Shown piece after piece: positions 3,328 to 64,000 of a DNA stretch of 64,000 nucleotides. How positions within the stretch are numbered: position 1 is the stretch's first letter; each line of letters opens with the position of its first letter. Both the position numbers and the translations under genes were made by a program. Source of the stretch: a virus; IMG/VR virus record IMGVR_UViG_3300033978_000477, positions 21,452-85,451 of that record. The stretch is one strand, 5' to 3'. A model generated the notes under the pieces. The model made no database searches and was not told where the DNA came from. It saw only the letters and a program-made list of their open reading frames with translations.

Positions 3328-3843
3328 ATGAGCGAAGAGGTATCGAAACTGACCCCCGAGGAACGCCTCGAAGGTCTCATGTTGGCGCTGTCCGGACGCA
3401 TCGAAGAAGCGCATCAGGAAGCGAAGGGCTGGTACCGCACCGTTCGCAACTCCATCGCTGAGACCAACCAAGAGCTGTCGATGCTCAAGGCTCGGCTTGA
3501 CTCCGCCGAGAACAAGCTGCGCCGGCACGACTCCGGTTTTGCTCGCGCCTCCGATGCGGACCTGAAGCAGAACGAAGACATCAAGTCCATCGTCGCGGCA
3601 ACCGGGAACTGCGTACAAGCCATCGACGCACTTGAGAAGAAGCTCGAAGCGTACGAGGCCAACGCCAGTACCAAGGCCGAGAGCATGCAGACGGTTGCAA
3701 CGGAAGCCGTCTCGCAGACCCAGACCTTGGAGTCTCAAAAGCAGAAGCTTGAGAAGGAGGGCAGCAAGTCCACCCTCGGGCTCGTCCTCACCATCGGCGT
3801 TCTCGTTCTCCAGATCGTCGAACACTACATCAGCCGGAAGTGA
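3328..3843 (+). CDS. Coiled-coil protein with C-terminal transmembrane helix (lysis-module membrane protein)
   Basis: RBS AGGAGG; heptad-rich body; TLGLVLTIGVLVLQIV at the C-terminus. Confidence 0.6.
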   Translation: MSEEVSKLTPEERLEGLMLALSGRIEEAHQEAKGWYRTVRNSIAETNQELSMLKARLDSAENKLRRHDSGFARASDADLKQNEDIKSIVAATGNCVQAIDALEKKLEAYEANASTKAESMQTVATEAVSQTQTLESQKQKLEKEGSKSTLGLVLTIGVLVLQIVEHYISRK

Positions 3844-3846
3844 CTG

Positions 3847-3951
3847 ATGACACCTGCAACTCTCGAACGGATTGAGACAGTGAAGACCTTCATCATGCTG
3901 TCGGTGCTGGTGCACGGCGCGGCAATGCTGGCCGTCTACTACCTGCGATGA
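3847..3951 (+). CDS. 34-aa single-TM microprotein (MTPATLERIETVKTFIMLSVLVHGAAMLAVYYLR)
   Basis: Hand-translated; ATGA overlap with next ORF; hydrophobic stretch. Confidence 0.5.
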   Translation: MTPATLERIETVKTFIMLSVLVHGAAMLAVYYLR

Positions 3952-4040
3952 GCTTGGAGGAGGCACTCGACGTAGCGGCCTACGCCGTCGTGACTGTCTC
4001 CGTCATCATCTGGCTTCAGCTTCTCCAAGTCTGGCGCTGA
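3948..4040 (+). CDS. 30-aa single-TM microprotein (MSLEEALDVAAYAVVTVSVIIWLQLLQVWR)
   Basis: Hand-translated; coupled to the previous ORF by ATGA. Confidence 0.5.
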   Translation: MSLEEALDVAAYAVVTVSVIIWLQLLQVWR

Positions 4041-4046
4041 CCACCA

Positions 4047-4166
4047 ATGCGTAACGACCTCGTAGACGCTGCCAAAGGCTGGCTCTGCATGGTCGCGCTC
4101 GCTCTCGCGTTCAGCGCAGTCATTGAAGTTTGCACGGGCCGATGGCCCACCGGAGTATCCCCATGA
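4047..4166 (+). CDS. 39-aa single-TM microprotein (MRNDLVDAAKGWLCMVALALAFSAVIEVCTGRWPTGVSP)
   Basis: Hand-translated; ATGA overlap with the 4163 ORF. Confidence 0.5.
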   Translation: MRNDLVDAAKGWLCMVALALAFSAVIEVCTGRWPTGVSP

Positions 4167-4639
4167 ATCGTGACAACCTCATCGGCCTTGGCTTCATCGT
4201 TGCCATTGTTGGCGCAGCCGTCCTGACCTACTTCGGCAAGGCGGACCCGGTCTACAGCTTCGGTTCCATCATGGGAGCTTTCCTCCTTTGGGTGCAGGAC
4301 CGACCGGCCTTTGTGAAGAAGTTCTTCGGCGGCAAGGACGACCCGCCGCCGCCCGCTGCCGGCGCCGTAGCAGCGGTGTTGCTCGTGCTCTGCATGGGTG
4401 CGTCTAGCTCCCAGGCATCCTGCTCTCCAGCGTTCCGCAATGCCGTAGCCAAGAGCATCGTCGAGTTGGCCCCGTGCCTTCTGCTGAAGGTAGAGCAGGA
4501 CGTTGAAGCCAAAGATGCCATCCTCCAGTGCAACGTCCCTCAGGAGTTGGTTGAAGATGCGCTGATGCTGGTCGCGGCGCAGAAGGCCGCTCACTCGCAT
4601 GTGCTCGCGTCGAAACGAGACGCCGGGGCTTGCCAGTGA
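4163..4639 (+). CDS. Multi-TM membrane protein, holin-like
   Basis: Two N-terminal TM helices (LIGLGFIVAIVGAAVLTYF; SFGSIMGAFLLW) plus a third hydrophobic segment; position next to a peptidase. Confidence 0.5.
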   Translation: MNRDNLIGLGFIVAIVGAAVLTYFGKADPVYSFGSIMGAFLLWVQDRPAFVKKFFGGKDDPPPPAAGAVAAVLLVLCMGASSSQASCSPAFRNAVAKSIVELAPCLLLKVEQDVEAKDAILQCNVPQELVEDALMLVAAQKAAHSHVLASKRDAGACQ

Positions 4640-5448
4640 CAGACCTGATTCAGACGGCTGCCGACGCGGCGGAGTTCGTCAAACGGAAGTGGGGGCGGAA
4701 GCTCTTCCACGATGCCACGCAGATTGAGGAGTCCGACTGGATGTACTCCTCCGCGTTCCTCCTTGAGACCCATTTGCCGGGCGTCTCGATGCGGCCGCTT
4801 GTCGGGGCCATCCGTGACCAGGGGGCCACGAGTGCTTGCACCAACTTCGCCCTGTCGCGCAGCGTCGCGACTCGCGCGTACACCGTCGGCGCTCCACTGA
4901 CGAACTACCCGAGCGAGGTGGCCAACTACAAGCTTGGCCAGATGCTGGCGAACCCAGATGCCCCGCTCGTAGACATGGGCGCCAAGCTCGGCAAGGTGCT
5001 CCAGTCCGCGCGAGACGTTGGGATGGTGAGCGAAGCGCGCGCACCGTTCGACCCTGACACCATCACCGAACCGCTTCCGTGGGACGTGTACCGCGCCGGG
5101 TCTTCGGCGATGTCGGTACTGAACAAGGGCCTGTCCTACTACCGCGTCTTCGGCTCGGTGCAGGCCAAGCAAGCGCTTTCGAGGAACATCCCACTCGTGA
5201 TCGGCATGTCTGTTGACGAGTCGTTCATGAAGTACGACGGAGGCACCTACGTTCGCGGTGGTGCAGTTGTCGGCGGTCACGCAATGACGGGCATCGGCTA
5301 CCGCGCTGGCTGCCTCGAACTGGTGAACTCGTGGGGCGAGTTCTGGGGTGAGTCTGGTTTTGCCTGGCTCCCTCTCGAATACCTGGACTCCCCGAGCATC
5401 GTCTTCGAAGTCTACGCAATCGACATTGCCCCGAGGGCCGTCGTATGA
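4636..5448 (+). CDS. Papain-like (C1 family) cysteine peptidase
   Basis: DQGATSACT (Gln/Cys), GGHAM (His), NSWG (Asn) and WGESGF motifs. Confidence 0.85.
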   Translation: MTDLIQTAADAAEFVKRKWGRKLFHDATQIEESDWMYSSAFLLETHLPGVSMRPLVGAIRDQGATSACTNFALSRSVATRAYTVGAPLTNYPSEVANYKLGQMLANPDAPLVDMGAKLGKVLQSARDVGMVSEARAPFDPDTITEPLPWDVYRAGSSAMSVLNKGLSYYRVFGSVQAKQALSRNIPLVIGMSVDESFMKYDGGTYVRGGAVVGGHAMTGIGYRAGCLELVNSWGEFWGESGFAWLPLEYLDSPSIVFEVYAIDIAPRAVV

Positions 5449-5768
5449 AGCGCCTCGCATTCCTCGCGCTGCTCTTTGCGGCGTGTTCATCGGCCAAGGT
5501 TCTCCCCGTGGAACCCCCTGCTGTTGTCGTCTTTCCGCGCGACGGCGGGGCCGGTTGCTGCGAGCCAGCTTGTGCACGGATGCGCGAGAGTGGTTGCCCC
5601 GAGGGCGACCCATCCGAAACCGGCGAGTCCTGCGAAGACCTCTGCCGCCGCATCACTGCCATGCGCATCGACATGGGGGCTTGCTGCGTTGCTGCCTCCC
5701 GCACCAAAGACGAACTGCTCTCCTGCGGGACAACGAAGTCCGCTCGCGCAGTCCGTTGCCAACACTGA
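5445..5768 (+). CDS. Cys-rich lipoprotein
   Basis: MKRLAFLALLFAAC signal peptide/lipobox; many Cys. Confidence 0.65.
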   Translation: MKRLAFLALLFAACSSAKVLPVEPPAVVVFPRDGGAGCCEPACARMRESGCPEGDPSETGESCEDLCRRITAMRIDMGACCVAASRTKDELLSCGTTKSARAVRCQH

Positions 5769-5776
5769 CGGGGTGT

Positions 5777-6058
5777 ATGCAGATGGACAGTCGCGACCGA
5801 ACGTACCCCACCGGGCGAATGCTTGCCGTGGTGGTCAAGACGATCAGTGATTCAGTGCCCCCGCCGGCCCCACCACCGTTCTTTGGTGCGTGCGAGCGAT
5901 GCGAGGGCGTTGGCTTCAAGGAACGCGTTGTGGAGCCCTATAGCGGCCCAATGCTGGCGAGAGAGAAGAAGTGCCGCGTCTGCGATGGCACTGGACTCGC
6001 GACACCGGAGCAGAACGAAGCATGGCGCGCCGAATTGTCAGCCAAGCAGAGCGCTTGA
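5777..6058 (+). CDS. DnaJ-type CxxCxGxG zinc-finger protein
   Basis: CERCEGVG and CRVCDGTG. Confidence 0.55.
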   Translation: MQMDSRDRTYPTGRMLAVVVKTISDSVPPPAPPPFFGACERCEGVGFKERVVEPYSGPMLAREKKCRVCDGTGLATPEQNEAWRAELSAKQSA

Positions 6059-6225
6059 CGCATTGCTGCCCGGCTTGCTGCGGACTCGGCAAGACAGAGC
6101 ACGTCGAAGAAGGCGGACTCGACATCACGTACCACATCCAACTTTGCGACACCTGCTGGGGCGCTGGGCGCGTCACTGAGAAGCGGATGCGCAAGTACTG
6201 GAACGACACCCCCGCAACAGCCTGA
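6055..6225 (+). CDS. Small DnaJ-type zinc-finger protein
   Basis: CPACCGLG and CDTCWGAG; TTG start overlapping the previous stop. Confidence 0.45.
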   Translation: MTHCCPACCGLGKTEHVEEGGLDITYHIQLCDTCWGAGRVTEKRMRKYWNDTPATA

Positions 6226-6299
6226 GCGCTGCTGACGACAATTCAAACCCATCGATTGCTGGGCCCCGTCACCGGTGCGCCTGAACGGAGAACTACGCC

Positions 6300-6740
6300 A
6301 TGTCTATGTCGAACACTTCGGAGAACAACCTTCTCCTCCTCCTCTTCAACAACACCAACTGGGCAAACCTTGGTGATGCGACGGGGCTCCGAAGTTCCAC
6401 CACCGCCGGGTCGTTCCACATCTCGCTGCATACCGCAGACCCCGGCGAGGCTGGCTCCCAGACCACCAGCGAGATCAGCTACACCGGGTATAGCCGCGTT
6501 GCTGTCGCTCGCAGCGGTTCCGGCTTCACCGTCACCGGCGCATCAGTGAGCAACGCTGCTGCCGTCACGTTCGGAGCCTGCACCGCGGGCAGCGGAACTG
6601 CGACTCACTTCAGCATCGGCCGAGACGCTTCGGGCACTGGTGAAATCATCATCAGCGGCGCGCTCTCGGCGAGCCTCGCGATCTCTGCGGGTATTACTCC
6701 ACAATTCGCTATCGGGCAGATGACCGCCACGGCCGACTGA
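6300..6740 (+). CDS. Phage tail-fibre-associated structural protein
   Basis: ENNLLLLLFN..ISLHTADPGEAG..EISYTGYSRVAV..NAAAVTF, a conserved phage structural family pattern. Confidence 0.7.
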   Translation: MSMSNTSENNLLLLLFNNTNWANLGDATGLRSSTTAGSFHISLHTADPGEAGSQTTSEISYTGYSRVAVARSGSGFTVTGASVSNAAAVTFGACTAGSGTATHFSIGRDASGTGEIIISGALSASLAISAGITPQFAIGQMTATAD

Positions 6741-6800
6741 CCGTGAAGGTGTTCGAGGTGGCTTCAGAGCAGGAACGTATTCGGACGGAGTCCTAATCAG

Positions 6801-8744: not shown

Positions 8745-10607
8745 ATGTTCCTTACCCTCCTTGGCGGCGCGGCCTACCCGCTTACACTCGCCTGGACGGG
8801 TTTTTGGAGAGCCAACTACACCGGCAGTCCCTGGACCGGACTGCCGTCCGCTGGCGCATCGGGTGGTCGGCTGCTCTCGGAGGGAACCAACCCGGCGACG
8901 GTGGGCGTCGTCCCGCAGAATGGGTATGACCCTGCAAGCTTCGACGGCACCAATGACATCCTCGCGACCGGCGTTGACTTCACGTCCGGTGAGTACCTTG
9001 AGGACTTCGTATCCGGCATCACGTCCCCCTGGACGGTGCATGTCGTTGTGCGTTGCAACTCACTCGTTGCGACAGGTGCATGGTACCTGGACCCGGGCAT
9101 CGTCAGCCACTCAGGCTCCAGCGTCATCGGCATTACTGCGTCTGCTGATGGTGTGCAGGCGCACATCTACACCAGCGGCGGCGCGGTAACCACCGGCCTC
9201 ATCCCAATCACGACGTCGGACTACCACGTCGTTCAGGCGCGGTGGGACGGGACGGACCTTTCGCTCCGAGTTGACGGTGGCACATGGGACACCGTTGCCG
9301 CCGCGGACATGTTCTATGCGTCCGATCGCGCACTGCAACTTGGGTGTAACTACGACAGGACCGCGTTCCTTGACGCAGACTTTCTAGAGTTCGGAATTGC
9401 GTCGTCTGCGTTCTCGAACACGGAACTCGACGATCTCTACGACTATGCCGTAGCCGAGTATGCGCTTGGTGGCGTCAGTGCCATCTCTGGAACCGCGAGC
9501 CTCACACTCGCCACCGGCACATCGGTCCTCACTGGCACCGGCGCCCTGGTCGGCAGCGGGACCGCGACCCTTGCCACTGGTACGAGCACCCTAACCGGTG
9601 TTGGTGGCCTTGTTGGCTATGCGCCCATCGTCCTCGCGACGGGCACGTCGACTCTCCGTGGCACTGGGGCACTGGTCGGCTCCGCAAGCGCCACGCTTGC
9701 CACCGGCACCTCTACCCTGACGGGCAGCGGGGCGCTGACTGGTTCAGCCTCCGTAACGCTCGCCACCGGCACCTCCGCACTCACCGGGGTTGCGGCTTGC
9801 GTCGGCTCTGCCTCGCTCGCGCTCACCACCGGGACCAGTACCCTTCTGGGCACTGGCGCCATGGTGGGGTCTGCCCCGCTCTCGCTGACGACGACGGGCG
9901 ACCTGACCGATGCGTCGTCCGGCTTCTCGTACATCAGCGGGTCGGCAACCATCACCCTGTCGGCAAGCGCAACGCTTGCTGCCCAGGGCGCTCTGGTTGG
10001 CTCCGCAAGCCTCGCGCTTGCCACCGGGACGAGCACCCTAAGGGGAACGGCAAACGCCCAGGGAAGCGCGACAGCGAGCCTTGCCGCGTCTGCTACGGCC
10101 ACCGGGACAGGGGCGCTATCTGGGACTGCCCCCGTCGTCCTGACGTGCTCCGCGACACCGCGAGGCACGGGCGCACTGGTTGGGTCAAGCTCCCTGGCTG
10201 TAGCGGCAACCGCTACGGGTCGGATGCTTGCGGCCATCGCCGGCTCGGTGTCATTCAGCCTTGGCGCCAACGGCACCATCGTCGCCACCGGAGGCCTGCA
10301 AGGCCTTGCCCTGGTTGCGCTGTCGACGTCCGGGACTCTGACCGGGGTTGCGTCTGCGGCAGGCACCGGAACGCTGACGCTTGGGGCCAGCGCATTGCTT
10401 GGCGCAACCGTCACCGCAAGTGGCAGCGCTGCACTGGCACTGTCACTCACCGGAACGCTTGGTGTCGTCACTGAGGACGTTATCCCAGGCGGGCCATACA
10501 CCACGCGACTCGCCGGCAACTTCATCGGCGTGACTCGTCCGGTGTCGGACGAGAGGGCATCGACCCGAATCGTCGCATCACAAGTCGCAAGGACGAGGCG
10601 CCCATGA
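8745..10607 (+). CDS. LamG-like domain plus low-complexity A/G/S/T repeat stalk (fibre/decoration protein)
   Basis: N-terminal concanavalin-like fold (FDGTND..YHVVQARWDG..LRVDG); ~21-aa repeats LATGTSTLTGxGALVGSA. Confidence 0.6.
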   Translation: MFLTLLGGAAYPLTLAWTGFWRANYTGSPWTGLPSAGASGGRLLSEGTNPATVGVVPQNGYDPASFDGTNDILATGVDFTSGEYLEDFVSGITSPWTVHVVVRCNSLVATGAWYLDPGIVSHSGSSVIGITASADGVQAHIYTSGGAVTTGLIPITTSDYHVVQARWDGTDLSLRVDGGTWDTVAAADMFYASDRALQLGCNYDRTAFLDADFLEFGIASSAFSNTELDDLYDYAVAEYALGGVSAISGTASLTLATGTSVLTGTGALVGSGTATLATGTSTLTGVGGLVGYAPIVLATGTSTLRGTGALVGSASATLATGTSTLTGSGALTGSASVTLATGTSALTGVAACVGSASLALTTGTSTLLGTGAMVGSAPLSLTTTGDLTDASSGFSYISGSATITLSASATLAAQGALVGSASLALATGTSTLRGTANAQGSATASLAASATATGTGALSGTAPVVLTCSATPRGTGALVGSSSLAVAATATGRMLAAIAGSVSFSLGANGTIVATGGLQGLALVALSTSGTLTGVASAAGTGTLTLGASALLGATVTASGSAALALSLTGTLGVVTEDVIPGGPYTTRLAGNFIGVTRPVSDERASTRIVASQVARTRRP

Positions 10608-10927
10608 GCCGATTCGACATCAAGCGCAATGACAGGTTGCCGGCCATCTCGGTCTTTCTGGAGGCCGGCAACGCTGCCATCGATCTCACCTCTTGCACCG
10701 TCCGGTTCCTCATGACCAGCGAGGCGACTGGGGTACTGAAGGTGGATGGCGCAGCGACCGTGCTGAGCGCCTCGACTGGCAAGGTCTCCTACGAATGGGG
10801 CGCGACGGACACTGACACCTCGGGAGTCTACCGCGCGGAATGGGAGGTCACGTTCCCAGGTGGCAAGACACGCACTGTCCCATCGAAGGGCTACGACACC
10901 GTCGAAGTCCACGATGACTTGGATTGA
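10604..10927 (+). CDS. BppU-like baseplate upper/Ig-like protein
   Basis: FDIKRNDRLP..IDLT..VRFLM..GKVSYEW..DTDTSGVYRAEWEVTF..TVPS. Confidence 0.7.
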   Translation: MSRFDIKRNDRLPAISVFLEAGNAAIDLTSCTVRFLMTSEATGVLKVDGAATVLSASTGKVSYEWGATDTDTSGVYRAEWEVTFPGGKTRTVPSKGYDTVEVHDDLD

Positions 10928-12608: not shown

Positions 12609-13981
12609 GCGGCGTTGTCAGTCGGTGGACAGAGCAGAACATCGACATCCTCATCGCATGCGTTCGTGGCGCAAAGACCATGGGCGAGGCGCTCATTCAT
12701 GCGTCAGCAGCCCTTGGCTTTGAGGTGACGTTCCCCGGTGCGGCCGGTGCGCTTCGCAGGTCTCGCAAGCTTCGCATTGGATCGCTGCTCGGAAAACTGC
12801 CGACGCAGACCGATGAAGACGGCCCGCCTACGCTGCCGTCCGTCCGAGCCCCTGAGCAACTGGACCCGGAGTCCACGGTTGAGCTTGCAGCCTTCCGAGC
12901 CAGGCAAGCGGCGCGGCAGAGCGTTGCGCCGATGGCTTTCGTCCCGACGCCTCCGCCGAAGGAAGAGAAGCCCAAGCGAGAGCCCACCGTCGAAGACGAC
13001 TTGGCGCTTCATCGGGCCAAGATTCGCATCTCGGATCTTGAGGATGCCAAGAAGCGTCTGCTGAAGGAACTCGACGACCACAAGGACCAGATCGCGGTGA
13101 TGCGCGACCTGCGCAGCGCTCGCCCGATGGGGCCGGTGACGGCAGCCAAGAAGGTGGGCGGCAAACAGCGAACCGGAACCCCGGTGATGCTCTGCTCCGA
13201 CTGGCACATCGAGGAGCCCGTCGACCCGGCCAAGGTCAACGGCATCAACGAGTACAACCTCGACATCGCCGCGCGCTGCATCAACGACCTCGCGGACGGC
13301 TTCGAGTGGATGATGCGCGACACCCGCTACGACTGCCGATCTGCGGTAGTGTGGCTCGGGGGTGACCTCTTCAGTGGATACATTCACGAAGAACTGACCG
13401 AGGGTAACTTCCTCTCACCGACGCAAGCGGTGCTCTGGCTGCAAGACCGCATCGAGGCGATGCTGAGGAAGATCGCGGCGACCTGCCCGAACCTCGAACG
13501 CATCATCGTTCCTTGCAACGATGGCAACCATGGGCGGATGACGCACAAGATCCGAGTCAGCACTCGGACAGCGAACAGCCTCGAATGGTTGATGTACCAG
13601 AACCTCGCGGTTCGGATGCGAGACGATCCTCGCTTCGAGTTCCAGATTGCCGAAGGGGAGTGGACGTTCCTCGACCTGTACGGCGACAAGCTCGCCTTCA
13701 CCCATGGCGACTCGTTCAGCTACGGCGGCGGCGTCGGAGGCATCTCTATCCCCATCCGCCGCGGCGTTGCTCGGCAGTTCGCTGGGCAGAAGATCGCCAA
13801 GGTTTGCATGGGGCACTTCCACCAGCGCCAAGACTTCGGCGACATCGCGGTGAATGGCAGCTTGATAGGCCCAGGGCCCTACTCGATGCGCATCCACGCA
13901 GCTCCAGAGCCGCGACAGCAACACTGGTTCCTCTGGGACAGTGAACGCGGGCAGGCATTGAGCGCTCCCATGTGGCTTTGA
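12605..13981 (+). CDS. Calcineurin-like metallophosphoesterase with N-terminal extension
   Basis: SDWH, GGDL, GNHGR, HGD and GHFH motifs. Confidence 0.85.
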   Translation: MSGVVSRWTEQNIDILIACVRGAKTMGEALIHASAALGFEVTFPGAAGALRRSRKLRIGSLLGKLPTQTDEDGPPTLPSVRAPEQLDPESTVELAAFRARQAARQSVAPMAFVPTPPPKEEKPKREPTVEDDLALHRAKIRISDLEDAKKRLLKELDDHKDQIAVMRDLRSARPMGPVTAAKKVGGKQRTGTPVMLCSDWHIEEPVDPAKVNGINEYNLDIAARCINDLADGFEWMMRDTRYDCRSAVVWLGGDLFSGYIHEELTEGNFLSPTQAVLWLQDRIEAMLRKIAATCPNLERIIVPCNDGNHGRMTHKIRVSTRTANSLEWLMYQNLAVRMRDDPRFEFQIAEGEWTFLDLYGDKLAFTHGDSFSYGGGVGGISIPIRRGVARQFAGQKIAKVCMGHFHQRQDFGDIAVNGSLIGPGPYSMRIHAAPEPRQQHWFLWDSERGQALSAPMWL

Positions 13982-13997
13982 TTCTCACGAGACAAGA

Positions 13998-14300
13998 ATG
14001 ACCCTCACCACCCTCCGCCCCGCATTCCTTCGCACCTCCCCAGATGGATCTTGGGGCATCATCGACTCCTTCACCGACGCCCAAGGCATATCGTTCGACT
14101 GTCCCTGCTGCGGCAAGAAGCATCGAATCGTCTGCTGGTTTGACGACCGAGGAACCCCGAGCGCAATCGCGGCAGACCGTGGGAGGTGGGTTGCGTCCGG
14201 TAGCGGACTCGCAGACCTGACGTTGTCCCCATCGATCCACTTGCTCGGCGGTTGCGCTTGGCAGGGGAGTGTTACCAACGGCGAGGTCACTTCCGCGTAA
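13998..14300 (+). CDS. DUF6527-like small protein
   Basis: FDCPCCG..W..LTLSPSI..CAWQGSVTNGEV. Confidence 0.6.
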   Translation: MTLTTLRPAFLRTSPDGSWGIIDSFTDAQGISFDCPCCGKKHRIVCWFDDRGTPSAIAADRGRWVASGSGLADLTLSPSIHLLGGCAWQGSVTNGEVTSA

Positions 14301-18097: not shown

Positions 18098-18178
18098 CTC
18101 CTATCCAGAAAGGTTGAGGGGGAAAGGAAGGGCGCTGCGTTGCAGCGCAGCGCCCTACCGGGTGACAGAACTCAGCGC
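18098..18178 (-). promoter_or_regulatory. Repeated intergenic hairpin/RBS element, copy downstream of DUF932 gene
   Basis: GCGCTGA-N7-CACCC..AGGGCGCTGCG-CTGCAA-CGCAGCGCCCT..CTGGATAGGAG. Confidence 0.6.
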
Positions 18179-19613: not shown

Positions 19614-19679
19614 CTCCTATCCAGTTGTTTGGGTTGTGCGTCGCGTTGCAGCGCGCCGCGGGGTGTCGTTGTTCAGCGC
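19614..19679 (-). promoter_or_regulatory. Repeated intergenic hairpin/RBS element, copy upstream of DUF932 gene
   Basis: GCGCTGA-N7-CACCC-CGCGGCGCG-CTGCAA-CGCGACGC..CTGGATAGGAG. Confidence 0.6.
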
Positions 19680-19920: not shown

Positions 19921-20280
19921 TTAGTTGAGCATGTCGACGGCGTCGACAACCTCGACGCCAGCCGCACGCGCCCTCGCGACCATGTCCGCAGTCCCGCGTC
20001 CACCAGGGAACGCGACTACGAGGTCGGGCTTCTCCCGCTCCAGCATCAGCGCGTTGCGGATGGGTCCTGCTGCCCGACCGTGCGTCTTCCAGTCGGCATG
20101 GTAGGCGACGCATTGGTGTCCGTTCTCCCGCGCCCAGCGGGCCGCCAGCGCGTCAGCGCCAGTGGCTCCGCCGTGGACGATGCGGAGGTCACCGTGGAAC
20201 GCGTGTAGCGTGTTCAGCGTGTCTCTGACGCGGTGCCAGTCTGAGTAGTCGCGTCCGCCGCAAACGAGGATGGTGGTCAC
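19921..20280 (-). CDS. SLOG family protein (YspA-related/DUF2493)
   Basis: ILVCGGRDY, IVHGGATGAD, AAGPIRN, VVAFPGGRGTADMV. Confidence 0.85.
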   Translation of the reverse strand: MTTILVCGGRDYSDWHRVRDTLNTLHAFHGDLRIVHGGATGADALAARWARENGHQCVAYHADWKTHGRAAGPIRNALMLEREKPDLVVAFPGGRGTADMVARARAAGVEVVDAVDMLN

Positions 20281-21026
20281 CGGTTCACGTCCCGTTCCCG
20301 CGCTGCAAGCGCGTCAGTCAACTCGTCCGAATAATACGCGCGCTCCCACGCGCGTCGCCCATGCCCGGTCCCTCGGTCCCCTCCCAGCGACCCAACGCGG
20401 ATGTAGTTCCGGTCGTACATGCCGCCTTGGGTGCATGCGTACGCGGGATGCAACGGCAGCCCATGGGCATGAATGAACGGGAACACGTGAAGCGCCACCT
20501 TCCAGTGCCCGATTGGGGCGCAGGTGTTCTCCGTGGTGAGTCCGTAGTGCGCCGTTCGAAGGCGCCTGACCGCAGACTCTTGGGCGCGCACACCCGAGAT
20601 GTGGCGCTTCCCGAACATGCGCTCGGCTTGCGCGAAACCCTCGGATGACGTGAGCCCCTTCTTCGCGGTACGAGCCTCGACCTCGTGATAGTTGGCGGTC
20701 GGATGCATCGCGAGAAATGCGTCCCGAACCAAGACGCAATCTGGGTTCTCACGATCATCGACGCGCACCCAGACGAGAGGAACATGGATCCCGTGGGTCA
20801 ACGCGATGTGCGCCGTCACCACGGAGTCCTTGCCCCAACTCACCCCGAGGTAACCGCGCCTGCCATCAGGGCCGGCATCAAGGAACGTTCGCATCTCGTG
20901 AGCTGCCTTGCGAGCAAGCACATCAAGAGTCGGCCGCATCCTCTTTGCCTCAAGCGCATCGGTGCGCTCATAGATGGCCCACTGCTCCAAATCGCGTGGC
21001 GTATGGCGCGGACTGGCTATCAGCAC
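20277..21026 (-). CDS. cysH: CysH-like PAPS-reductase-family protein of type IV-B CRISPR loci
   Basis: PP-loop SWGKDS, SGVRAQES..RR, PIGHW..LPLHPAY; directly downstream of csf3. Confidence 0.85.
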   Translation of the reverse strand: MLIASPRHTPRDLEQWAIYERTDALEAKRMRPTLDVLARKAAHEMRTFLDAGPDGRRGYLGVSWGKDSVVTAHIALTHGIHVPLVWVRVDDRENPDCVLVRDAFLAMHPTANYHEVEARTAKKGLTSSEGFAQAERMFGKRHISGVRAQESAVRRLRTAHYGLTTENTCAPIGHWKVALHVFPFIHAHGLPLHPAYACTQGGMYDRNYIRVGSLGGDRGTGHGRRAWERAYYSDELTDALAARERDVNR

Positions 21027-21655
21027 GCAGTGGCCTCCTCACGATGTTTCTGCCAGTACGGAGGCGCCAGAACGCGCCGTTCGATGCGATGCTCTCCCAG
21101 TCCCTCCCAGTCGAGCGGAAGCGGTCTGAGTGGCCGCCCAGCGCGAAGAACGGGGAAGCCCGGCCACGCTTCGATCGGCTCAACCACCCACCGATCCACA
21201 CGGCCGAGACCGACGCCGCGCTTCTTCCCGAGGTGAGTGACGAGCGAGAGGATGTCCGTCACCGCGTCGATGTCCCCGATGGCATAGAACGTCATCAGAT
21301 CGCCATGCAGGTGCAGAGTCTCGGCGGGGATGCGGAAGCCCTTGGACAGGCCGCCCTTTGGGTTGACGCTCATCTTGGTCTTCCCGAGCATCTGCGCCTC
21401 CAGCATCGGGAAGCGCTTGTTGATGAACCGCTTCTCGTGCAGCTCGACACTGAACTGCCCCGTCGACGCGAGGTAGATGCCGCGCTCTCGCGAGATGGGG
21501 ATCTGAATGTCAACGAGAGGACCGAACCCCGGAGGGGGGAGCGCGTCGCGCACGGCAATGGCTGCCATGAGCAACGCGTCCAGTGCAATGCTCGCATGAG
21601 GAAGCATCACGGAACCGCGCAGGTGTGCGCGAGCGACGAAGGGACCCATGGTCAC
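21020..21655 (-). CDS. csf3: Type IV Cas5-like subunit Csf3
   Basis: IALDALL, TFYAIGD, HLGKKRGVGLGRVDRW (G-rich loop), RPLP, PPYW. Confidence 0.8.
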   Translation of the reverse strand: MTMGPFVARAHLRGSVMLPHASIALDALLMAAIAVRDALPPPGFGPLVDIQIPISRERGIYLASTGQFSVELHEKRFINKRFPMLEAQMLGKTKMSVNPKGGLSKGFRIPAETLHLHGDLMTFYAIGDIDAVTDILSLVTHLGKKRGVGLGRVDRWVVEPIEAWPGFPVLRAGRPLRPLPLDWEGLGEHRIERRVLAPPYWQKHREEATAC

Positions 21656-22659
21656 GCGTCCACCTCGGACAGAAACTTGGCGACCTTCTCTTTCCGCTCG
21701 CTCACATGCGAGAAGAAGAGGGAGCCGATCTTCGGCGCCAACGCTCCAACGTCCAGGTTCTCCGGCGCCTCACGAGGGCGACGAACCGCGATCTGCTTTG
21801 CGATGATCGGACGGATGCGCCCGTGCCCGGTCGCGCGTTTCCCCCCGACGCGAGCATCGCGAAGGAAGGCGCCAACCATCGTGTTGAACGTGTCCCGCTC
21901 AAGCTCCGTGTGGACCGTCGCAGTGACCGACCAGTAGAACAGTGCGCCGGAGACAACGGTCTCATGGTTGCGAGGAAGCATCGTGCTCTTGGACGAGTCC
22001 GCAATGACGACGTCGCCGACTTCCTTCCCGTGTTCGGACGCAAGCAGTCGCCGCTCGATGCTCAGCCCTCCGTCCGTCAGAAGCTTGCGCTTCCCAGGGT
22101 CCAGGCTCGGGTCCATGCGAACGCGCATCACCTCTTCGACGTGACCGCGTGCAGATGAGAGTTTGACCCCGTGCTCCTTCAGCCATTCGTTGACCCACTC
22201 CGGCATCCGGTGGGCAGTCTCGTCGCAGATCAAGTCCGCCGCATCCACTTGGACCTTCCCAGGGATCGCGCGGTTCTGGGCGCAGCCTCCGAGGAGTCCT
22301 AGGGGAGGGCAGAGATCGATCATGACAGAGTAGTCCGACAACTTCACGGACCCTTCCTGCGAGCCAGATATCATCCCGCCAGCGAAGAGAAGTCGCAGAG
22401 CGGCCTCGCCAAGCGCGGGGTTTTCCAGCATCCCGGCCGCATCAAGAAGCGCGTAAGCGCCGGCCTCGCGCAGACCGTGGCGCATCGTGTCTCCGGTGAT
22501 GATCGGTACATGTGCAAAGGAGCCATCGGGCAGACGGCGCTTCTCGCGCATCACGAGAGACGTGTTGCCGATGCTCTCCGATGCATGGGCAATTGGCGTA
22601 AGGGCCTCAAGGATGAAATCGTAACGAACCACTTCGTGAACCTTCTTCGTCTCGCTCAT
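21652..22659 (-). CDS. csf2: Type IV Cas7-like backbone subunit Csf2
   Basis: LEALTPIAH, VPIITGDTMRHGLRE, LLFAGG, PPLGLLGG, GKVQV, VGGKRATGHGRI (RAMP G-loop). Confidence 0.85.
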   Translation of the reverse strand: MSETKKVHEVVRYDFILEALTPIAHASESIGNTSLVMREKRRLPDGSFAHVPIITGDTMRHGLREAGAYALLDAAGMLENPALGEAALRLLFAGGMISGSQEGSVKLSDYSVMIDLCPPLGLLGGCAQNRAIPGKVQVDAADLICDETAHRMPEWVNEWLKEHGVKLSSARGHVEEVMRVRMDPSLDPGKRKLLTDGGLSIERRLLASEHGKEVGDVVIADSSKSTMLPRNHETVVSGALFYWSVTATVHTELERDTFNTMVGAFLRDARVGGKRATGHGRIRPIIAKQIAVRRPREAPENLDVGALAPKIGSLFFSHVSERKEKVAKFLSEVDA

Positions 22660-23042
22660 TGTGCCGCTTCCTCTCGTGCTGCCTGGGCAGCTTCCTTGCG
22701 TTGTTCGGCGATGCCACGGGCCATCGCAATCAGGTAGCCAAACTCCCTTTCGATCAAGTCGAGCCATGCGCGGGAGCAGTTGTTCTCTCGGACGAAGTCC
22801 GCGAGATCACGAGAAGAGCGAGAGCTGTCCACTCGCAGCGCCCCCAACTGAAGCGTTCGAACCATCTTGGTCGTCCACTCCTCTACCGATTCGCTCTGCC
22901 GAGATGCCGCCAGCATCCGGCTCTGCAACTGATCCCAGTGCTTCAGGACGTTGCACCCAGGCGTCCCCAGGTACGCGCTCCGAAGCTCCAGCAGAAGCTC
23001 CACTGTCAGCGTCCGCAGACGCTCTTTCTTTTCCTCGTTCAC
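22656..23042 (-). CDS. cas11: Cas11-like small alpha-helical subunit
   Basis: 128-aa helical protein between csf1 and csf2 (the IV-B position); GTG start at 23042; ATGA-coupled to csf2. Confidence 0.65.
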   Translation of the reverse strand: MNEEKKERLRTLTVELLLELRSAYLGTPGCNVLKHWDQLQSRMLAASRQSESVEEWTTKMVRTLQLGALRVDSSRSSRDLADFVRENNCSRAWLDLIEREFGYLIAMARGIAEQRKEAAQAAREEAAQ

Positions 23043-23817
23043 GTTTCGGTCCCTTCTTCTTGGTCGGCCCATCAGCCTTCGATTTCGTCGTCTTCGCCGC
23101 GGCCTTCTTTGCCGCCTTCTCTTGTTTCTCCGCTTCCATCCTTTCGGCCACTGCGGCCTCGTCACGTTGCGCCAGCCAGATGGCCAACTCAAACCACTGC
23201 CCACCACGCCTAAAGCCGTGCTTGGTCTCGAACGCGTGAAGCTTCGCCCCGCACAACTGCCACGCGCGCGAGCCGAGAGCCCCAGACAGAATCTCCTCCT
23301 TCGTTGCGCCCATCGTCAGCAGATCGGCGATGTCGTCCAGCATTGACCAGCCTTCAGCATCGCGAGGCAACTCGACGATGGCCTCCTCGAACAGGACCGC
23401 ACCACCGGCCTGTCCAGGCGCGTTGATGGGGGTCCACGGGATCAGGTGCTTCTTGCCGCTGTCCGCGATGGCGGCGAACCATGGGGCCTCGTGGGTGCGG
23501 CGAATGAAGTCTCGGATGGCTGGCTTCTGCCCCTTGTTCACGCGGACGTGAGAGGAGCCTTCCACCAGGTGCGTCCACATGCGCTCAGTGTCGGGAGGTT
23601 TGCCGGCCATGACGTGGACACATGACTCGCAGACGTAGCCGCTCTCTGCGCAGCGGACGCGGTTCTGGCCTGTAAAGTTTGCGCCGGCCCACTTGTGACG
23701 CTCCACCCCTCGCGTCGCGTCACCGCCGCAAACCCAACAATGGAACGCTTCCATGTCTCGGCACATGGCGTTTGGCTTGAGCCCGAGAATCTTGTGGATG
23801 ATCTGGCTAGGGCTCAC
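22807..23817 (-). CDS. csf1: Type IV Cas8-like large subunit Csf1 with C-terminal tail ending QLSLFS
   Basis: CWVCG..NFT..VCESC zinc motif; PWFAAIADSGKKHLIPWTPIN. Confidence 0.75.
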   Translation of the reverse strand: MSPSQIIHKILGLKPNAMCRDMEAFHCWVCGGDATRGVERHKWAGANFTGQNRVRCAESGYVCESCVHVMAGKPPDTERMWTHLVEGSSHVRVNKGQKPAIRDFIRRTHEAPWFAAIADSGKKHLIPWTPINAPGQAGGAVLFEEAIVELPRDAEGWSMLDDIADLLTMGATKEEILSGALGSRAWQLCGAKLHAFETKHGFRRGGQWFELAIWLAQRDEAAVAERMEAEKQEKAAKKAAAKTTKSKADGPTKKKGPKRERGKERASADADSGASAGASERVPGDAWVQRPEALGSVAEPDAGGISAERIGRGVDDQDGSNASVGGAASGQLSLFS

Positions 23818-24752
23818 GGAACCTCCGAGACACGAATGCGCCCAAAGCCAAACGCGGTGCGCCCTCCAAAGCCGGTACGTGCTGCGACTTCAAGAAGCCA
23901 CCGGGCTGGAGCGTTTGCCTCGACCACGCAATGCCCCTCCCAGCCTGAAACGGTGCCGTACTTGCCGCCGACCTCTACCCTGGCGACCCTCGTATCGACC
24001 TCAGACGCTTCGACGCGGATCAGGTCGTCCGTCTTCAGGTGTTCGAGAGAGAAACGCTGAAGCCAAGCTCCGGCGAGTGTGTTGAGCAGCGCGACTGATG
24101 TTGGCTTCTCGTGGCTCTTGGTGCGCCCATCCGTTGTCATGACGACAGGGGTGATGGTGTCGATACGGACGCGCTTCCTGCCCCTAGCAATGCCGCGCGG
24201 CGCCTTGATTCGGAAGGCCTGTCCAAACTTGAACTTCGATGGATGCCCGTACAGTGGACAGTCGACAGTCTTGCCGGCCAATGAGGCGCCAGCATCGTGC
24301 CACCAGTGGACCGCCCAACCGCTCTGATACGGGAACAGCGTCCACAACGGAAAGCGAGGCATGTGCCCCATGTCGAGGATGTTGGTCAGTGCGCCATGAA
24401 GGCCCCGGGTGTTTCGCAACTCAATGGGCCACTTTGGCGACGGGTAGACACTGAAGGCCATTGATGCGCCCGGCAGGTACGTGTCGAACGGAGGGGCGCC
24501 AGCAAGCCATGGTTTGCGGGTGGAGCAGGCTCGGTTTGCCTCTGCCCACTTGCGGTTCCGCTCCCTGTCCTTCTCGACGTAGGAAGGCGATGCTCTCCGT
24601 GCACGGTCCCGCTCCCGCTCCCGTTCCTTCCTGCACTCTTCAGAGCAGAACTGCGTCATCCAAGGGTTGGCCGTTTGGTACACCGACCGGCAACGTTTGC
24701 ACTCTGCTTCGTACCGCTCACGCTCTGCTGCGTTCATCAACTCACACCTCAC
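23814..24752 (-). CDS. cas6: Cas6-like RAMP endoribonuclease with N-terminal zinc-finger/basic helix
   Basis: LHGAL, IDTITPVV, GWEG..LLEVAARTGFGGRTAFGFGRI (GxGxxxxxGxG); N-terminal CKRC..FCSEEC. Confidence 0.8.
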   Translation of the reverse strand: MRCELMNAAERERYEAECKRCRSVYQTANPWMTQFCSEECRKERERERDRARRASPSYVEKDRERNRKWAEANRACSTRKPWLAGAPPFDTYLPGASMAFSVYPSPKWPIELRNTRGLHGALTNILDMGHMPRFPLWTLFPYQSGWAVHWWHDAGASLAGKTVDCPLYGHPSKFKFGQAFRIKAPRGIARGRKRVRIDTITPVVMTTDGRTKSHEKPTSVALLNTLAGAWLQRFSLEHLKTDDLIRVEASEVDTRVARVEVGGKYGTVSGWEGHCVVEANAPARWLLEVAARTGFGGRTAFGFGRIRVSEVP

Positions 24753-25644: not shown

Positions 25645-26772
25645 TCAGATCCTCATCGGCATGACGACGCACAAGAAGTCATCGCCAGACTCCGCCTCGG
25701 GCGCCACCATCAGCGGGTCGAGTTCCCCGTTCAGTTTGAGGACCACCTCCTCGCAGGACAGAACGTTGCAGGCGTCGACGATGTATTTGGCGTTGAATCC
25801 AACGCTGATGTTCGGTCCGGTGTAGCCGATGATCAGTTCGTCCGCCCCATCACCATGCTCCGGGCTCTCCGCCTCGATGCGGAGCGTCCCCTTGGAGAAG
25901 CGGAACTTGACGCCTCCAGTGCGCTCGTTCGATGCAACGGAGATCGCCTTGCAAGCCTCAATGAGCGCGAGCCGGTCGACTTCCGCGATGCTGTCGTTCC
26001 CCTTCGGGATGACCTGCGAGTATGGCGGGAACTTCGCGTCCACCAACTTGATGCTGTAGACCATCCCGGCGAAGTCGAAGAACGCGTTGTTGTCTGCGAT
26101 GGTGACGCGGATGACCGATCCAGCATCCGCTGCGCTGGCCTCGTCACACATGCGACGGATGTCAGTTGCTCCCTTCAGCGGAAGAAGGAACTCAAAAGCG
26201 GTTCCTTCGGAGACGGGGAGGTTCGACAACGTCAGACGATGCCCGTCGGTGGAGACCGTTCGCAGGTTGGTGCCATCAGCCTCGAACTTGATCGCGTTCA
26301 GGTGGGCCCGCGACTCGTCCACGCCAACGCTGGAGATGACTCGACCGATGGCGCGCGACAACGTCACGGCATGGAACTCGCGCGACGCCGTTGTGTTTGC
26401 GCCGGCAGCCTTTGCGACGGGCGGGAAGTCTTCGGCATGGTGGCATGGGAGCCGAAACTTTCGCGCCCCCTTCTCCGCCTTCATCTGGACGGCCTTGTCA
26501 TCACCGATGATGGTGAGGTTGCCCGAAGGCATCGCCTTGACGCGAGCTTCCAGATCCTTCGCGCCGATGGCGATGGCCCCGGACTTCGAGACCTTGGCGT
26601 CCACGGACCCGGTGACGGATCGGTAGAGGTCGGTCGCGGTGAAGTGGACCTGTCCATCTTCGCAACGTAGGAGGATGTTCGCGAGCATCGGCATGGTGCT
26701 CTTGTGGTCTGCGACAGGCGTTGCCCGTCGAAGGATCTTGTCGAGGTCGTTGCGTTGAATCGTCACTTCCAT
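25645..26772 (-). CDS. dnaN: DNA polymerase III beta sliding clamp
   Basis: TMPMLANILL, TATDL, EDFP, VSTDGHRL, FPPYSQVIP, GFNAKYI, VVMPMRI. Confidence 0.95.
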   Translation of the reverse strand: MEVTIQRNDLDKILRRATPVADHKSTMPMLANILLRCEDGQVHFTATDLYRSVTGSVDAKVSKSGAIAIGAKDLEARVKAMPSGNLTIIGDDKAVQMKAEKGARKFRLPCHHAEDFPPVAKAAGANTTASREFHAVTLSRAIGRVISSVGVDESRAHLNAIKFEADGTNLRTVSTDGHRLTLSNLPVSEGTAFEFLLPLKGATDIRRMCDEASAADAGSVIRVTIADNNAFFDFAGMVYSIKLVDAKFPPYSQVIPKGNDSIAEVDRLALIEACKAISVASNERTGGVKFRFSKGTLRIEAESPEHGDGADELIIGYTGPNISVGFNAKYIVDACNVLSCEEVVLKLNGELDPLMVAPEAESGDDFLCVVMPMRI

Positions 26773-26987
26773 TGTCTGTTCTCTCCGTTCGTTCGGGACC
26801 CGCCCGACTCGGTTGATGCAATTCGTTTCTCGATGGCCCGCTGAACAGCCACCACCTTCCACTGAGGGCAGCCGTTGGTGTCCGCGTACTGCCTTGCCCT
26901 GGCAACCAGATCGTCGAAGCTCGCGCTCCCGAGCCAGGCCAGGAACTTGATGTCCGCATCGATCCGGTGATGCTCCCCGCGCCTCAT
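26763..26987 (-). CDS. Hypothetical protein
   Basis: Coupled ORF. Confidence 0.45.
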   Translation of the reverse strand: MRRGEHHRIDADIKFLAWLGSASFDDLVARARQYADTNGCPQWKVVAVQRAIEKRIASTESGGSRTNGENRQWK

Positions 26988-27193
26988 TGCCCGGACACCT
27001 CCCGCCAACCGGCATCGGTCAGCCGGTAGTAGGTCTTTGGCCCATCGGCGAACTGCACCGTCGCAGTCGCGCACAACCCCCTCAGGACGAGCGCGTCAAC
27101 CGCATCGGCCTGGGATGGGGTCTCGGGCATGAAGAGCATGTGGCGGGCCATCTGGCGCAAGCAAGCGGCCTCTGCGTCGATAGCCATCAGCAC
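26984..27193 (-). CDS. Hypothetical protein (winged-helix-like)
   Basis: ALVLRGL..KTYYRLTDAG; RBS GAGGAGG overlapping integrase stop. Confidence 0.5.
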   Translation of the reverse strand: MLMAIDAEAACLRQMARHMLFMPETPSQADAVDALVLRGLCATATVQFADGPKTYYRLTDAGWREVSGQ

Positions 27194-29040: not shown

Positions 29041-29180
29041 GCCCGTCTCTCCGGGCTGTCACGCTGCAATGCTGCGTTGGCACTGGTCTCGCGACCATGT
29101 GGACGCTGGCGGAATCGAACCACCAACACGCGCGCATGCCACATGGGCGCCCCGTTGATGCCGGTCTCTCCCGGCTGTCA
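29041..29180 (-). ncRNA. Structured RNA element: two covarying 21-nt hairpin repeats flanking a T-loop/tRNA-like module
   Basis: TGACAGCCGGGAGAGACCGGC and TGACAGCCCGGAGAGACGGGC; internal GGTGG-TTCGATT-CCGCC and TGGTC-GCGA-GACCA. Confidence 0.6.
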
Positions 29181-34631: not shown

Positions 34632-34685
34632 TGGACCAGCGCCTCGGAGTTGAACCAAGGACAGGGCCGTAAACCTTCGCCAGTC
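34632..34685 (-). ncRNA. Minimal tRNA-like element (acceptor stem plus T-arm) in leader of recT-like gene
   Basis: GACTGGCG..CCTTGG-TTCAACT-CCGAGG-CGCTGGTC-CA; preceded by a GGCAGAC/GTCTGCC hairpin (34686-34713). Confidence 0.55.
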
Positions 34686-34788
34686 GGCAGACTCAACGGG
34701 CTCTCCGTCTGCCAGGGAATCAGTCAGGTGCGCTCGCATTGCGCAAGCGCCCATGTTCCTCGCGGTCTCACCCGCGCCCGTCGAAGTC

Positions 34789-62937: not shown

Positions 62938-64000
62938 ATGTCCGCACTCACCCGCATCGCATGGCAGGCCGCGAAGGCCATCGGCTTTGCGCCAGCAGTC
63001 TATCAGCGGGCAAGGCTGTCCCAATCCGCAATGGTTGGCAGAGCAATCCCCGACCTTGCGCTATGGCATCAGTTCCAGCGCATCGGCGGAGCCATCACTC
63101 CCACGCAAGTCTCCACCATCCTCCGAGAGGCGGACGCTGGCGACATGACGCGGCTGATGGACCTCGGCAACGATGCGAGGCAAAAGGACGGTCACCTACA
63201 GGCAATCCTCTCTCAGGCAGAGGAGGGCATTGCTGGGCTCGATTGGCAGTTGCGTCTACCTGAAGGTGCCAAGGCGCGAGACAAGCGCGCGGCGAAGGTG
63301 GCCGAGTCGTACCTGCGGTCGGCGAAGAACTTCCAGCGGATGATCTCGCATCAAGCGGGAGCCATCTACTACGGAAGGGCCATCACCGAGACTGCGTGGC
63401 AGAAGCGAGACGGCTTCCTTGTCCCCGGCGACTTCGTCAACCATGCGGCTCGGCGGTTCGTCTTCCGGCGAAGCGACGGCAAGCTTGTCTGGAAAGACCC
63501 CGGGATGGTCGAGGTGGACTTCCTCGAAGAGTTCCCCGGCAAGTTCATCGTCTCTCAGCCACGGGTCAACGGCGACGTTCCGTGTCGGGAGGGACTCATT
63601 CGCGTGATCGTTTGGGCTGCGATGTTCCGCAACTGGGACCTCACCGACTGGCTCCGCACCGGCGAGGCGTCTTGGAAGCCTTGGCGCATCGGCTACCACG
63701 ACCCAAAGGCCAACGATGAGGACAAGGAGTCGCTGGAGGCCGCACTGTCGCAACTGACGACAAGCGGCTACGCGATGTTGCCGAAGTCCACCGAGATGAA
63801 GATTGAGTGGCCCGGCGGGACATCTCAAAGCTCCAAGTCGACGCACTCGGAGCTGTTCAATGTCATTGCTCAGGAGATGAGCAAGGCCGTGCTCGGGCAG
63901 ACCGAGACGGTACAGTCCTCAAACAGCAGCGGCTACGCGCAAGCGAAGGTGCATGAGCGCGTTGGCGGAACTCTCCTCAAGTCCCGCGCCAAGTCTGTAG
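62938..64000 (+). CDS. Portal protein, DUF935/Mu gp29-like (3'-truncated)
   Basis: Hand-translated: ILREADAGD..KDGHLQAIL..AIYYGRAITETAW..QEMSKAVLGQTET..YAQAKVHE. Confidence 0.85.
   Translation, partial: MSALTRIAWQAAKAIGFAPAVYQRARLSQSAMVGRAIPDLALWHQFQRIGGAITPTQVSTILREADAGDMTRLMDLGNDARQKDGHLQAILSQAEEGIAGLDWQLRLPEGAKARDKRAAKVAESYLRSAKNFQRMISHQAGAIYYGRAITETAWQKRDGFLVPGDFVNHAARRFVFRRSDGKLVWKDPGMVEVDFLEEFPGKFIVSQPRVNGDVPCREGLIRVIVWAAMFRNWDLTDWLRTGEASWKPWRIGYHDPKANDEDKESLEAALSQLTTSGYAMLPKSTEMKIEWPGGTSQSSKSTHSELFNVIAQEMSKAVLGQTETVQSSNSSGYAQAKVHERVGGTLLKSRAKSV

Follow-up and report, generated by a model that had tools for sequence, protein, structure and literature searches.

A cas6 gene without a CRISPR array heads a type IV-B cassette in a 64,000-nucleotide stretch of viral DNA (positions 21,452 to 85,451 of the IMG/VR record IMGVR_UViG_3300033978_000477; hereafter, the window), which belongs to a tailed temperate phage. 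The reading favored here, at a probability of roughly 45%, is that this Cas6 is the dedicated RNA-recognition, and probably RNA-cutting, subunit of an array-less phage IV-B Csf complex and acts on hairpin RNA that is not of CRISPR origin. A role in choosing the RNA is suggested because the protein is kept, coupled, and conserved in array-less IV-B cassettes, because Cas6 of type IV-A matures CRISPR RNA (crRNA), and because the RNA of a IV-B complex lacking Cas6 is heterogeneous.

Cas6 at the head of a type IV-B cassette

The cas6 open reading frame (ORF) encodes 312 residues if the GTG at 24752 is used (Table 1). Pfam PF01881 matches the product above the family cut-off (23.6 bits, cut-off 23), and 12 PADLOC Cas6 models also match, the best with an E-value of 3.6e-8; the matches lie within residues ~185-309. 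The PADLOC matches are to generic Cas6, Cas6b, and Cas6_IIIa models, and no type IV-specific Cas6 model matched. In the ESM Atlas model of the protein (predicted template modeling score, pTM, 0.64), whose record begins at residue 6, residues 83-312 align to whole Cas6 clusters with TM scores of 0.56-0.68 by query, in a comparison of predicted models on both sides. Residues ~83-312 would therefore make up the whole of a two-domain Cas6, to which the N-terminal ~80 residues are an addition. A family profile search of the PDB aligned the glycine-rich loop to Cas6 6fjw (E 0.04), 3i4h, and 3pkm. Within the loop, G294, G296, and G304 are invariant; G302 is invariant in one alignment of the family (A1) and nearly so in another (A2, 108 of 236 sequences, picked for N-terminal coverage). 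As modeled, the ORF product is a genuine, divergent, and complete Cas6 with two RNA recognition motif (RRM)-like domains.

The first RRM-like domain holds H119, invariant in 108 of 108 rows of A2, and H130, conserved in at least 90%. These histidines bear on an unlikely alternative, in which the Cas6 fold has lost its endonuclease activity and serves only as a cap or assembly factor that contacts RNA or Csf proteins. There is no array to process, and the N-terminal RRM is too divergent to be matched to any solved Cas6 or Cas6 N-domain family, both of which favor this alternative. However, the conservation of H119 and H130, putative catalytic residues, would be unexpected for a purely structural remnant.

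The cassette reads cas6-csf1-cas11-csf2-csf3-cysH-like-SLOG, entirely on the (-) strand. The stop codon of cas6 overlaps the start of csf1 by 4 nt, and stop/start overlaps recur at the cas11-csf2, csf2-csf3, csf3-cysH-like, and cysH-like-SLOG junctions, measuring 4-7 nt along the run. Thus, cas6 is the first, translationally coupled gene of the cassette. The cas11 gene and the csf1 tail overlap in different frames, and the cas11 frame is conserved in related loci. The start of csf2 is probably M37 of a 371-residue ORF, judging from its sequence relatives; csf2 homologues match from residue ~42 on. Type IV-B is recognized by csf1, cas11, csf2, and csf3 in one operon and by an adjacent cysH-like gene, all of which are present, and by the lack of Cas6. 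Since this operon begins with Cas6, the cassette is classed as a IV-B variant rather than as canonical IV-B.

Table 1. Positions of the cassette genes, of the parts of Cas6, and of other features in the window
Feature	Coordinates	Strand	Basis
cas6 with N-terminal extension	23814..24752	(-)	ORF and translation; Cas6 family matches; Atlas structural neighbors all Cas6
C4 zinc finger, CKRC..x14..CSEEC, residues 18-40	24633..24701	(-)	Cys conservation in A2
Arg/Lys/Glu-rich helical segment, residues 41-78	24519..24632	(-)	Composition of translation
Conserved linker PWLAGAPP....LPG, residues 81-95	24468..24512	(-)	Conservation
H119 and H130 in first RRM-like domain, candidate catalytic histidines	24363..24398	(-)	Conservation in A2
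Glycine-rich loop GFGGRTAFGFG, residues 294-304	23841..23873	(-)	Conserved glycines; aligns to solved Cas6 loops
csf1 (type IV Cas8-like large subunit)	22807..23817	(-)	PADLOC typeIV_Cas8 E 6.7e-24; TIGR03114 E 6.4e-11
QLSLF at Csf1 C-terminus, sliding-clamp-binding-like motif	22813..22827	(-)	Tails compared among homologues
cas11 (small subunit)	22656..~23072	(-)	PADLOC typeIV_Cas11 E 4.8e-6 and 7.3e-6; start inferred
csf2 (type IV Cas7)	21652..22659	(-)	PADLOC typeIV_Cas7 E 2.2e-42
csf3 (type IV Cas5)	21020..21655	(-)	PADLOC typeIV_Cas5 E 4.8e-35; TIGR03116 E 5.5e-12
cysH-like (3'-phosphoadenosine 5'-phosphosulfate reductase / PP-loop family)	20277..21026	(-)	Pfam PF01507 24.6 bits, cut-off 22.5
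YspA/cpYpsA-type SLOG gene, last of coupled run	19921..20280	(-)	Pfam PF10686 E 2.1e-24
dnaN (phage beta sliding clamp), three genes upstream of cas6	25645..27015	(-)	Pfam PF00712, PF02767, PF02768, E 2e-18 to 1.1e-24
Two related GAGAGA-loop hairpins around a tRNA-like T-arm, candidate Cas6 substrate	29041..29180	(-)	Folding, sequence comparison

The same gene association recurs beyond this phage. Forty-two related loci were fetched and reduced to 41 distinct ones, since L014 and L002 are one contig. In 35 of the 41, the cas6 homologue has a csf or cysH-like gene next to it (32 with csf, 20 with cysH-like), and the remaining six are contigs of 1.2-4.2 kb or have cas6 at the contig end. The cas6 gene takes one of two positions: it precedes csf1, as in this phage, or it follows csf3, in most such cases with the cysH-like gene right after it. 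The original prediction had considered a free-standing Cas6 acting as an anti-CRISPR by sequestration, an idea that fits neither the place of the gene at the head of a coupled cassette nor this recurrent association. Among the 15 loci holding all core genes, Cas6 is less conserved than Csf2 in every one and the least conserved of Cas6, Csf1, Csf2, and Csf3 in 11. For example, the closest cassette (L011) shares 82% identity with the window in Csf2 and only 45% in Cas6. This divergence fits a specificity-determining part.

A CRISPR array occurs in one of the 41 loci (L016), with 8 repeats of ~36 nt at a period of 70-75 nt, 7 kb downstream of a zinc-finger cas6 and its IV-B cassette. This array could suggest that the family's Cas6 is a remnant from an ancestor that had an array, or that it assists arrays located elsewhere. 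However, the array directly follows a 636-residue Cas12f1-like gene (TNB domain PF07282, E 5.9e-13; gene and array at 15954-18420 of L016) and is, from this neighborhood, most simply a type V array. The other 40 loci have no array, and the large family and its conserved core residues argue against decay, which leaves a remnant or helper very improbable.

An exhaustive search recovered 288 cluster representatives of the Cas6 family at E <= 0.001, of which 239 reach E <= 1e-10 and 95 reach E <= 1e-30. A word-indexed search with 2319 candidates gave 104 relatives, most of them aligned over 94-99% of the query. The members are mostly viral. By tblastn, Cas6 has no match in 50,697 GenBank phage records or in 72,556 plasmids; Csf2 has none in the same plasmids and one distant match in the phage records. 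Type IV-B cassettes with a dedicated Cas6, often one bearing a zinc finger, are maintained in a large and mostly viral clade.

Several individual loci show features of their own. In L001, a 105-kb viral contig, a 155-residue tyrosine / dual-specificity phosphatase (HCx5R; PF03162, E 1.2e-6) is encoded at 13597-14064, between csf3 and the cysH-like gene; the seeming gaps between these two genes in L001 and L006 are coding. In L005, an 84-kb viral contig, the cas6 homologue at 10001-10800 lies in two frames, corresponding to query residues 46-174 and 171-309, which suggests a frameshift. Skermania phage SPI1 (KR011061.1, L043), an isolated phage, encodes Orf40-43 at 3837-6769, annotated as hypothetical, that match type IV Csf1 (E 1.9e-28), Cas11 (5.9e-15), Csf2 (1.2e-66), and Csf3 (2.1e-36); it has no cas6, and its Csf1 is short and lacks the tail. 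The SLOG gene of the window is coupled to the cassette in this phage only, with a homologue in none of the other 41 loci, and the stretch at 20114-20260, considered as intergenic, is part of that gene.

The N-terminal extension of Cas6

The start of Cas6 is probably ATG 24737 (residue 6), giving 307 residues. A GAGG lies 8 nt before this codon, which is the same point where the Atlas record starts, and GTG 24752 shares nucleotides with the stop codon of the MazG-like gene upstream. The next in-frame methionine downstream is M32, inside the finger. A real start downstream of the finger had been named in the original prediction as the result that would overturn it, and both candidate starts precede the finger. 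The fusion described there, of a Cas6 to a zinc finger and a basic helix that are not standard for Cas6, is borne out by the residues themselves, by the loop, and by the family matches.

The finger reads C18-K-R-C21, then F35-C36-S-E-E-C40, and its conservation goes beyond chance. C18 and C21 are invariant in A2, and C36 and C40 are present in at least 90% of its rows; because the rows were picked for N-terminal coverage, A2 is biased towards long forms. The segment that follows is strongly charged (24 of 40 residues at positions 41-80; 12 R, 4 K, 6 E, and 2 D), and its R63, R65, and W69 are nearly invariant. In the linker to the Cas6 core, W82, L83, G85, and P87 are nearly invariant, and L93, P94, and G95 are invariant or nearly so.

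The finger itself is distributed more patchily. Among 122 family proteins with the linker motif, 83 have a strict CxxC..CxxxC upstream of it (72 in one copy, 11 in two), and some of the other 39 have a finger with variant spacing. The finger is present in 21 of the 33 related loci with a readable 5' region. On a FastTree phylogeny of 115 cores, its presence requires 22 changes, compared with 27.3 on average, and never fewer than 22, in 200 label shuffles (minimum 22). This pattern of occurrence indicates a facultative finger, often lost or gained; finger-less forms still keep the basic helix and the linker.

The finger was compared with named families. The CxxC..(F/Y)C(S/G)xxC(R/K) spacing of FCS/TRASH-like C4 fingers agrees with that of the finger here, and the agreement is confined to the cysteine spacing. 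The closest resemblances are to the FCS finger 2l8e of Polyhomeotic-like protein 1 (E 0.26) and to L24e (E 0.30-0.33), neither of them significant, and no named finger family gave a significant profile match. FCS fingers and L24e bind RNA. Pfam searches with seven N-termini yielded no family at cut-off, the best being small treble-clef types (E 0.019-0.18). When residues 1-82 were used alone, the sole match, one of 19 candidates, was a 96%-identical homologue (P0001). The suggestion that this type of finger is common on phage HNH and other DNA-binding proteins found no backing in either search.

An array-less genome and the source of the RNA

The phage encodes a large terminase, a DnaB-like helicase, a replication initiator, an integrase, a head protease, a major head protein, a tail sheath, and a baseplate, and is accordingly a tailed temperate phage. 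The first and last 131 nt of its 85,451-bp genome record agree at 130 positions, and a portal-like ORF runs through the end junction (window 62938-64000 plus genome bases 1-463). The genome is regarded as complete because the contig ends overlap and the portal ORF spans the junction; CheckV gives a completeness of 100, and IMG/VR classes the ends as linear. Contigs from three sequencing runs extend past the window end by up to 28.6 kb, which fits a circular genome without proving circularity. DNA of this phage is present in 24 metagenome DNA runs from lake water. At least half of the sampled words occur in 17 of these runs, and several runs are possible sources of the record.

The absence of an array to process, first noted for the window, extends to the complete 85.4-kb genome. 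No tandem or spaced repeat array was found in either, and no cognate repeat array for Cas6 was found in the genome. Across the whole genome, a search for chains of three 8-10-mers spaced 45-100 nt apart gave one 8-mer inside coding sequence and nothing else. There is no two-repeat mini-array in the genome, where the lone 24-nt pair at 50-100 nt spacing lies inside a 620-residue ORF. A whole-genome search that included Cas1 and the DinG-type helicase domain (Helicase_C_2), and left out Cas2 and RecD, gave 0 matches to either.

With no array of its own, a phage that retains Cas6 must obtain RNA from another source, and one conceivable supply is the host. In this alternative, which appears rather unlikely, Cas6 would recognize host CRISPR repeats, and the Csf complex would be loaded with host guides, or the cassette would serve as an anti-CRISPR sponge. 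crRNA scavenging and sponging are among the published hypotheses for IV-B (PMC8175902, PMC7038947), and CRISPR-associated transposon (CAST) elements bind host crRNAs through Cas6 (PMC11656645). The rapid divergence of Cas6 relative to the other core parts is also what would be expected of a protein that tracks host repeats. However, the IV-B complex of Mycobacterium took up no co-expressed I-E crRNAs, and IV-B, which is mostly found in the absence of other CRISPR systems, shows negative correlations with I-B, I-C, I-E, and II-C (PMC8175902, PMC7038947). Four bacterial metagenome-assembled genomes (MAGs) contain the module; cas1 was not found in two of them, and none has a Cas6 above the family cut-off other than phage-type copies, which is weak evidence because the MAGs are incomplete. 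Host pre-crRNA, one of the substrates originally suggested, has thus gained no support from these genomes.

Four regions of the phage itself had been put forward as hairpin substrates. At 29041-29180 (-), two 19-nt elements, each a 5-bp stem with a GAGAGA loop and distinguished by a single compensatory pair, lie on either side of a 98-nt stretch with the T-arm-like stem GGTTCGATTCC; the downstream hairpin scores as terminator-like. The region at 18098-18178 (-) forms a strong terminator-like stem (z -2.99) before a ribosome-binding site. The other two, 34632-34713 (z -0.87) and 19614-19679 (-) (z +0.34), fold no better than shuffles, and none of the four could be linked to Cas6. A second T-arm-like stem occurs in the 34632-34713 region, and upstream of this stem, at 34761-34776 (-), is a third hairpin, whose loop is GTGAGA. 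Both T-arm-like elements, at 29041-29180 and 34632-34776 (-), are in the early leftward transcript, with a GNGAGA-loop hairpin near each. The gene junctions at 18098-18178 and 19614-19679 (-) have in common a GCGCTGCAACGC core and the ribosome-site string CTGGATAGGAG right before the next start codon. Rfam gave 0 matches and ARAGORN 0 tRNAs in the window; ARAGORN found one tRNA-Trp within the genome's first 20 kb, and tRNAs in 3 of 22 related loci. When the genome and 10 loci were scanned for paired hairpins, only three pairs came up, and these look like chance; the repeats of L011 include nothing hairpin-like near cas6.

Several results weigh against the favored reading. Hairpins of 5 bp with a GNGAGA loop number 3 in the phage genome compared with 1.0 in genome shuffles, and none was found in the 10 related loci scanned, which gave three weak 4-bp matches. 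The surroundings of the module in the 41 loci contain no conserved hairpin, no single repeat, and no mini-array, and the substrate scans of the genome and related loci found no RNA partner of Cas6. None of the 24 runs with DNA of this phage is an RNA sequencing run. Two of the three curated Cas6 models also score below cut-off, namely PF10040 (23.7 bits, cut-off 25; residues ~185-309) and TIGR01877 (E 1.4e-7, 32.2 bits, cut-off 58.65). The N-terminal RRM has no significant sequence or profile match among the solved Cas6 structures in the PDB (domain E 4.4e+02), and H119 and H130 are candidates for catalysis by their conservation. Finally, 12 of 33 loci, three of which lie at contig edges, have no finger, and its occurrence is scattered on the tree; the core function therefore cannot depend on it.

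The hairpins could instead belong to a Cas6 that works on its own, as a phage RNA-processing enzyme that matures phage transcripts, such as hairpin-flanked tRNA-like elements, and merely shares an operon with the Csf genes. The two hairpins around the T-arm and the third beside the other T-arm-like element, all on the early-gene strand, are consistent with such an enzyme. However, the association with csf and cysH-like genes across the related loci, in two gene orders, speaks against independence, as does the lack of such hairpins in the 10 loci scanned, and one hairpin is also terminator-like. An independent enzyme is therefore quite improbable. For the RNA of the favored reading, phage or other non-CRISPR hairpin RNA is a tentative choice, possible but short of even odds; host CRISPR transcripts are an unlikely source, and the rest falls to other RNA or to none.

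Proposed mechanism and known systems

In the mechanism proposed for the favored reading, Cas6 would bind a short stem-loop in a non-CRISPR transcript and would probably cut at its base. It would then stay on the hairpin, capping or nucleating a Csf2/Cas11 filament, and the Csf complex would thereby carry a defined RNA, where Cas6-less IV-B has random RNA. The finger and the basic helix may add contacts to nucleic acid (RNA) or to other subunits, contacts that would be dispensable in part of the family.

Csf1 has a low-complexity tail of ~110 residues (22807-23072 (-)), which overlaps the cas11 frame and ends in GQLSLFS. Tails of homologues (L001-L032) end in QLSLF, QLSLL, QCSLF, QQSLF, QRSLF, QLDLAL, QLGLW, or Q(G/S/Q)(R/W)(L/F)PG(F/I). 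The beta-clamp-binding consensus fits 6 of 18 Csf1 tails, compared with 11 of 2459 frames overall. A dnaN gene also adjoins or lies near the module in L015 and L004. Among the papers listed by literature searches, none ties Csf1 to the sliding clamp by its title or the start of its abstract. An improbable extension of the proposed mechanism would tether the complex to the replisome. The zinc-finger Cas6 would pick a hairpin RNA, for which the early tRNA-like RNAs are candidates, the Csf2/Cas11 filament would form, QLSLF would dock to the phage beta clamp, and the CysH-like and SLOG proteins would modify nucleic acid at forks. If so, type IV-B would be an RNA-templated, fork-associated device for modification or control rather than an immune effector.

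A dedicated Cas6 in a clade of 288 clusters provides a practical route to the RNA of a CRISPR subtype without known function. Cas6 proteins usually bind one specific stem-loop tightly. A pull-down should therefore reveal the IV-B RNA and would put to direct test the source of that RNA, which reviews name as an open question (PMC8175902, PMC11656645). Mutations could also be aimed at the clamp-motif tail of Csf1, at the facultative finger, and at the placement of cas6, for which the operons show two positions. The function of IV-B is still described as uncharacterized in reviews up to December 2024 (PMC8175902, PMC11656645). Rare instances of Cas6 in IV-B, 12 in number, have been reported (PMC7038947). 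None of the papers listed by literature searches describes a zinc-finger Cas6 in IV-B, although the 12 loci, which are listed in the supplement of PMC7038947, might include this family; the accessible part of Altae-Tran et al. (2023) does not treat such a protein.

Among known systems, the Csf complex of Mycobacterium sp. JS623 exemplifies IV-B and has the same four core genes, a cysH-like gene, and a mobile carrier, with no array, adaptation genes, or DinG (PMC7937560, PMC8175902). The Mycobacterium complex lacks Cas6 and assembles on heterogeneous RNA (PMC7937560, PMC8175902). Unlike that system, the cassette described here includes Cas6, a Csf1 tail of ~110 residues that overlaps cas11 and ends in QLSLF, and a SLOG gene after the cysH-like gene, and its carrier is a tailed phage instead of a plasmid. 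The atypical IV-B of the ‘Fuxiviridae’ likewise places a IV-B cassette with a cysH-like gene on a virus genome (PMC10848311). However, the Fuxivirus has a two-repeat mini-array, and the term ‘Cas6’ occurs 0 times in the main text of that paper, whereas the present phage has Cas6 and no mini-array.

The Cas6 proteins of types I and III (TIGR01877; PF01881/PF10040; 6fjw, 3i4h, 3pkm) resemble the phage protein in the C-terminal RRM, the glycine-rich loop, and, by the Atlas model, the two-domain fold. In contrast to them, the phage protein has an extra finger, helix, and linker of ~80 residues, an N-terminal RRM that is unrecognizable by sequence, and no array. The Cas6/Csf5 of IV-A is likewise a Cas6-family protein encoded in a type IV operon, although IV-A has an array and DinG and the present cassette has neither (PMC7038947). 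In IV-A, Cas6 is essential for crRNA maturation and for complex formation (PMC7038947). By analogy, a Cas6 that matures its RNA and stays in the complex serves as the working model for the phage protein.

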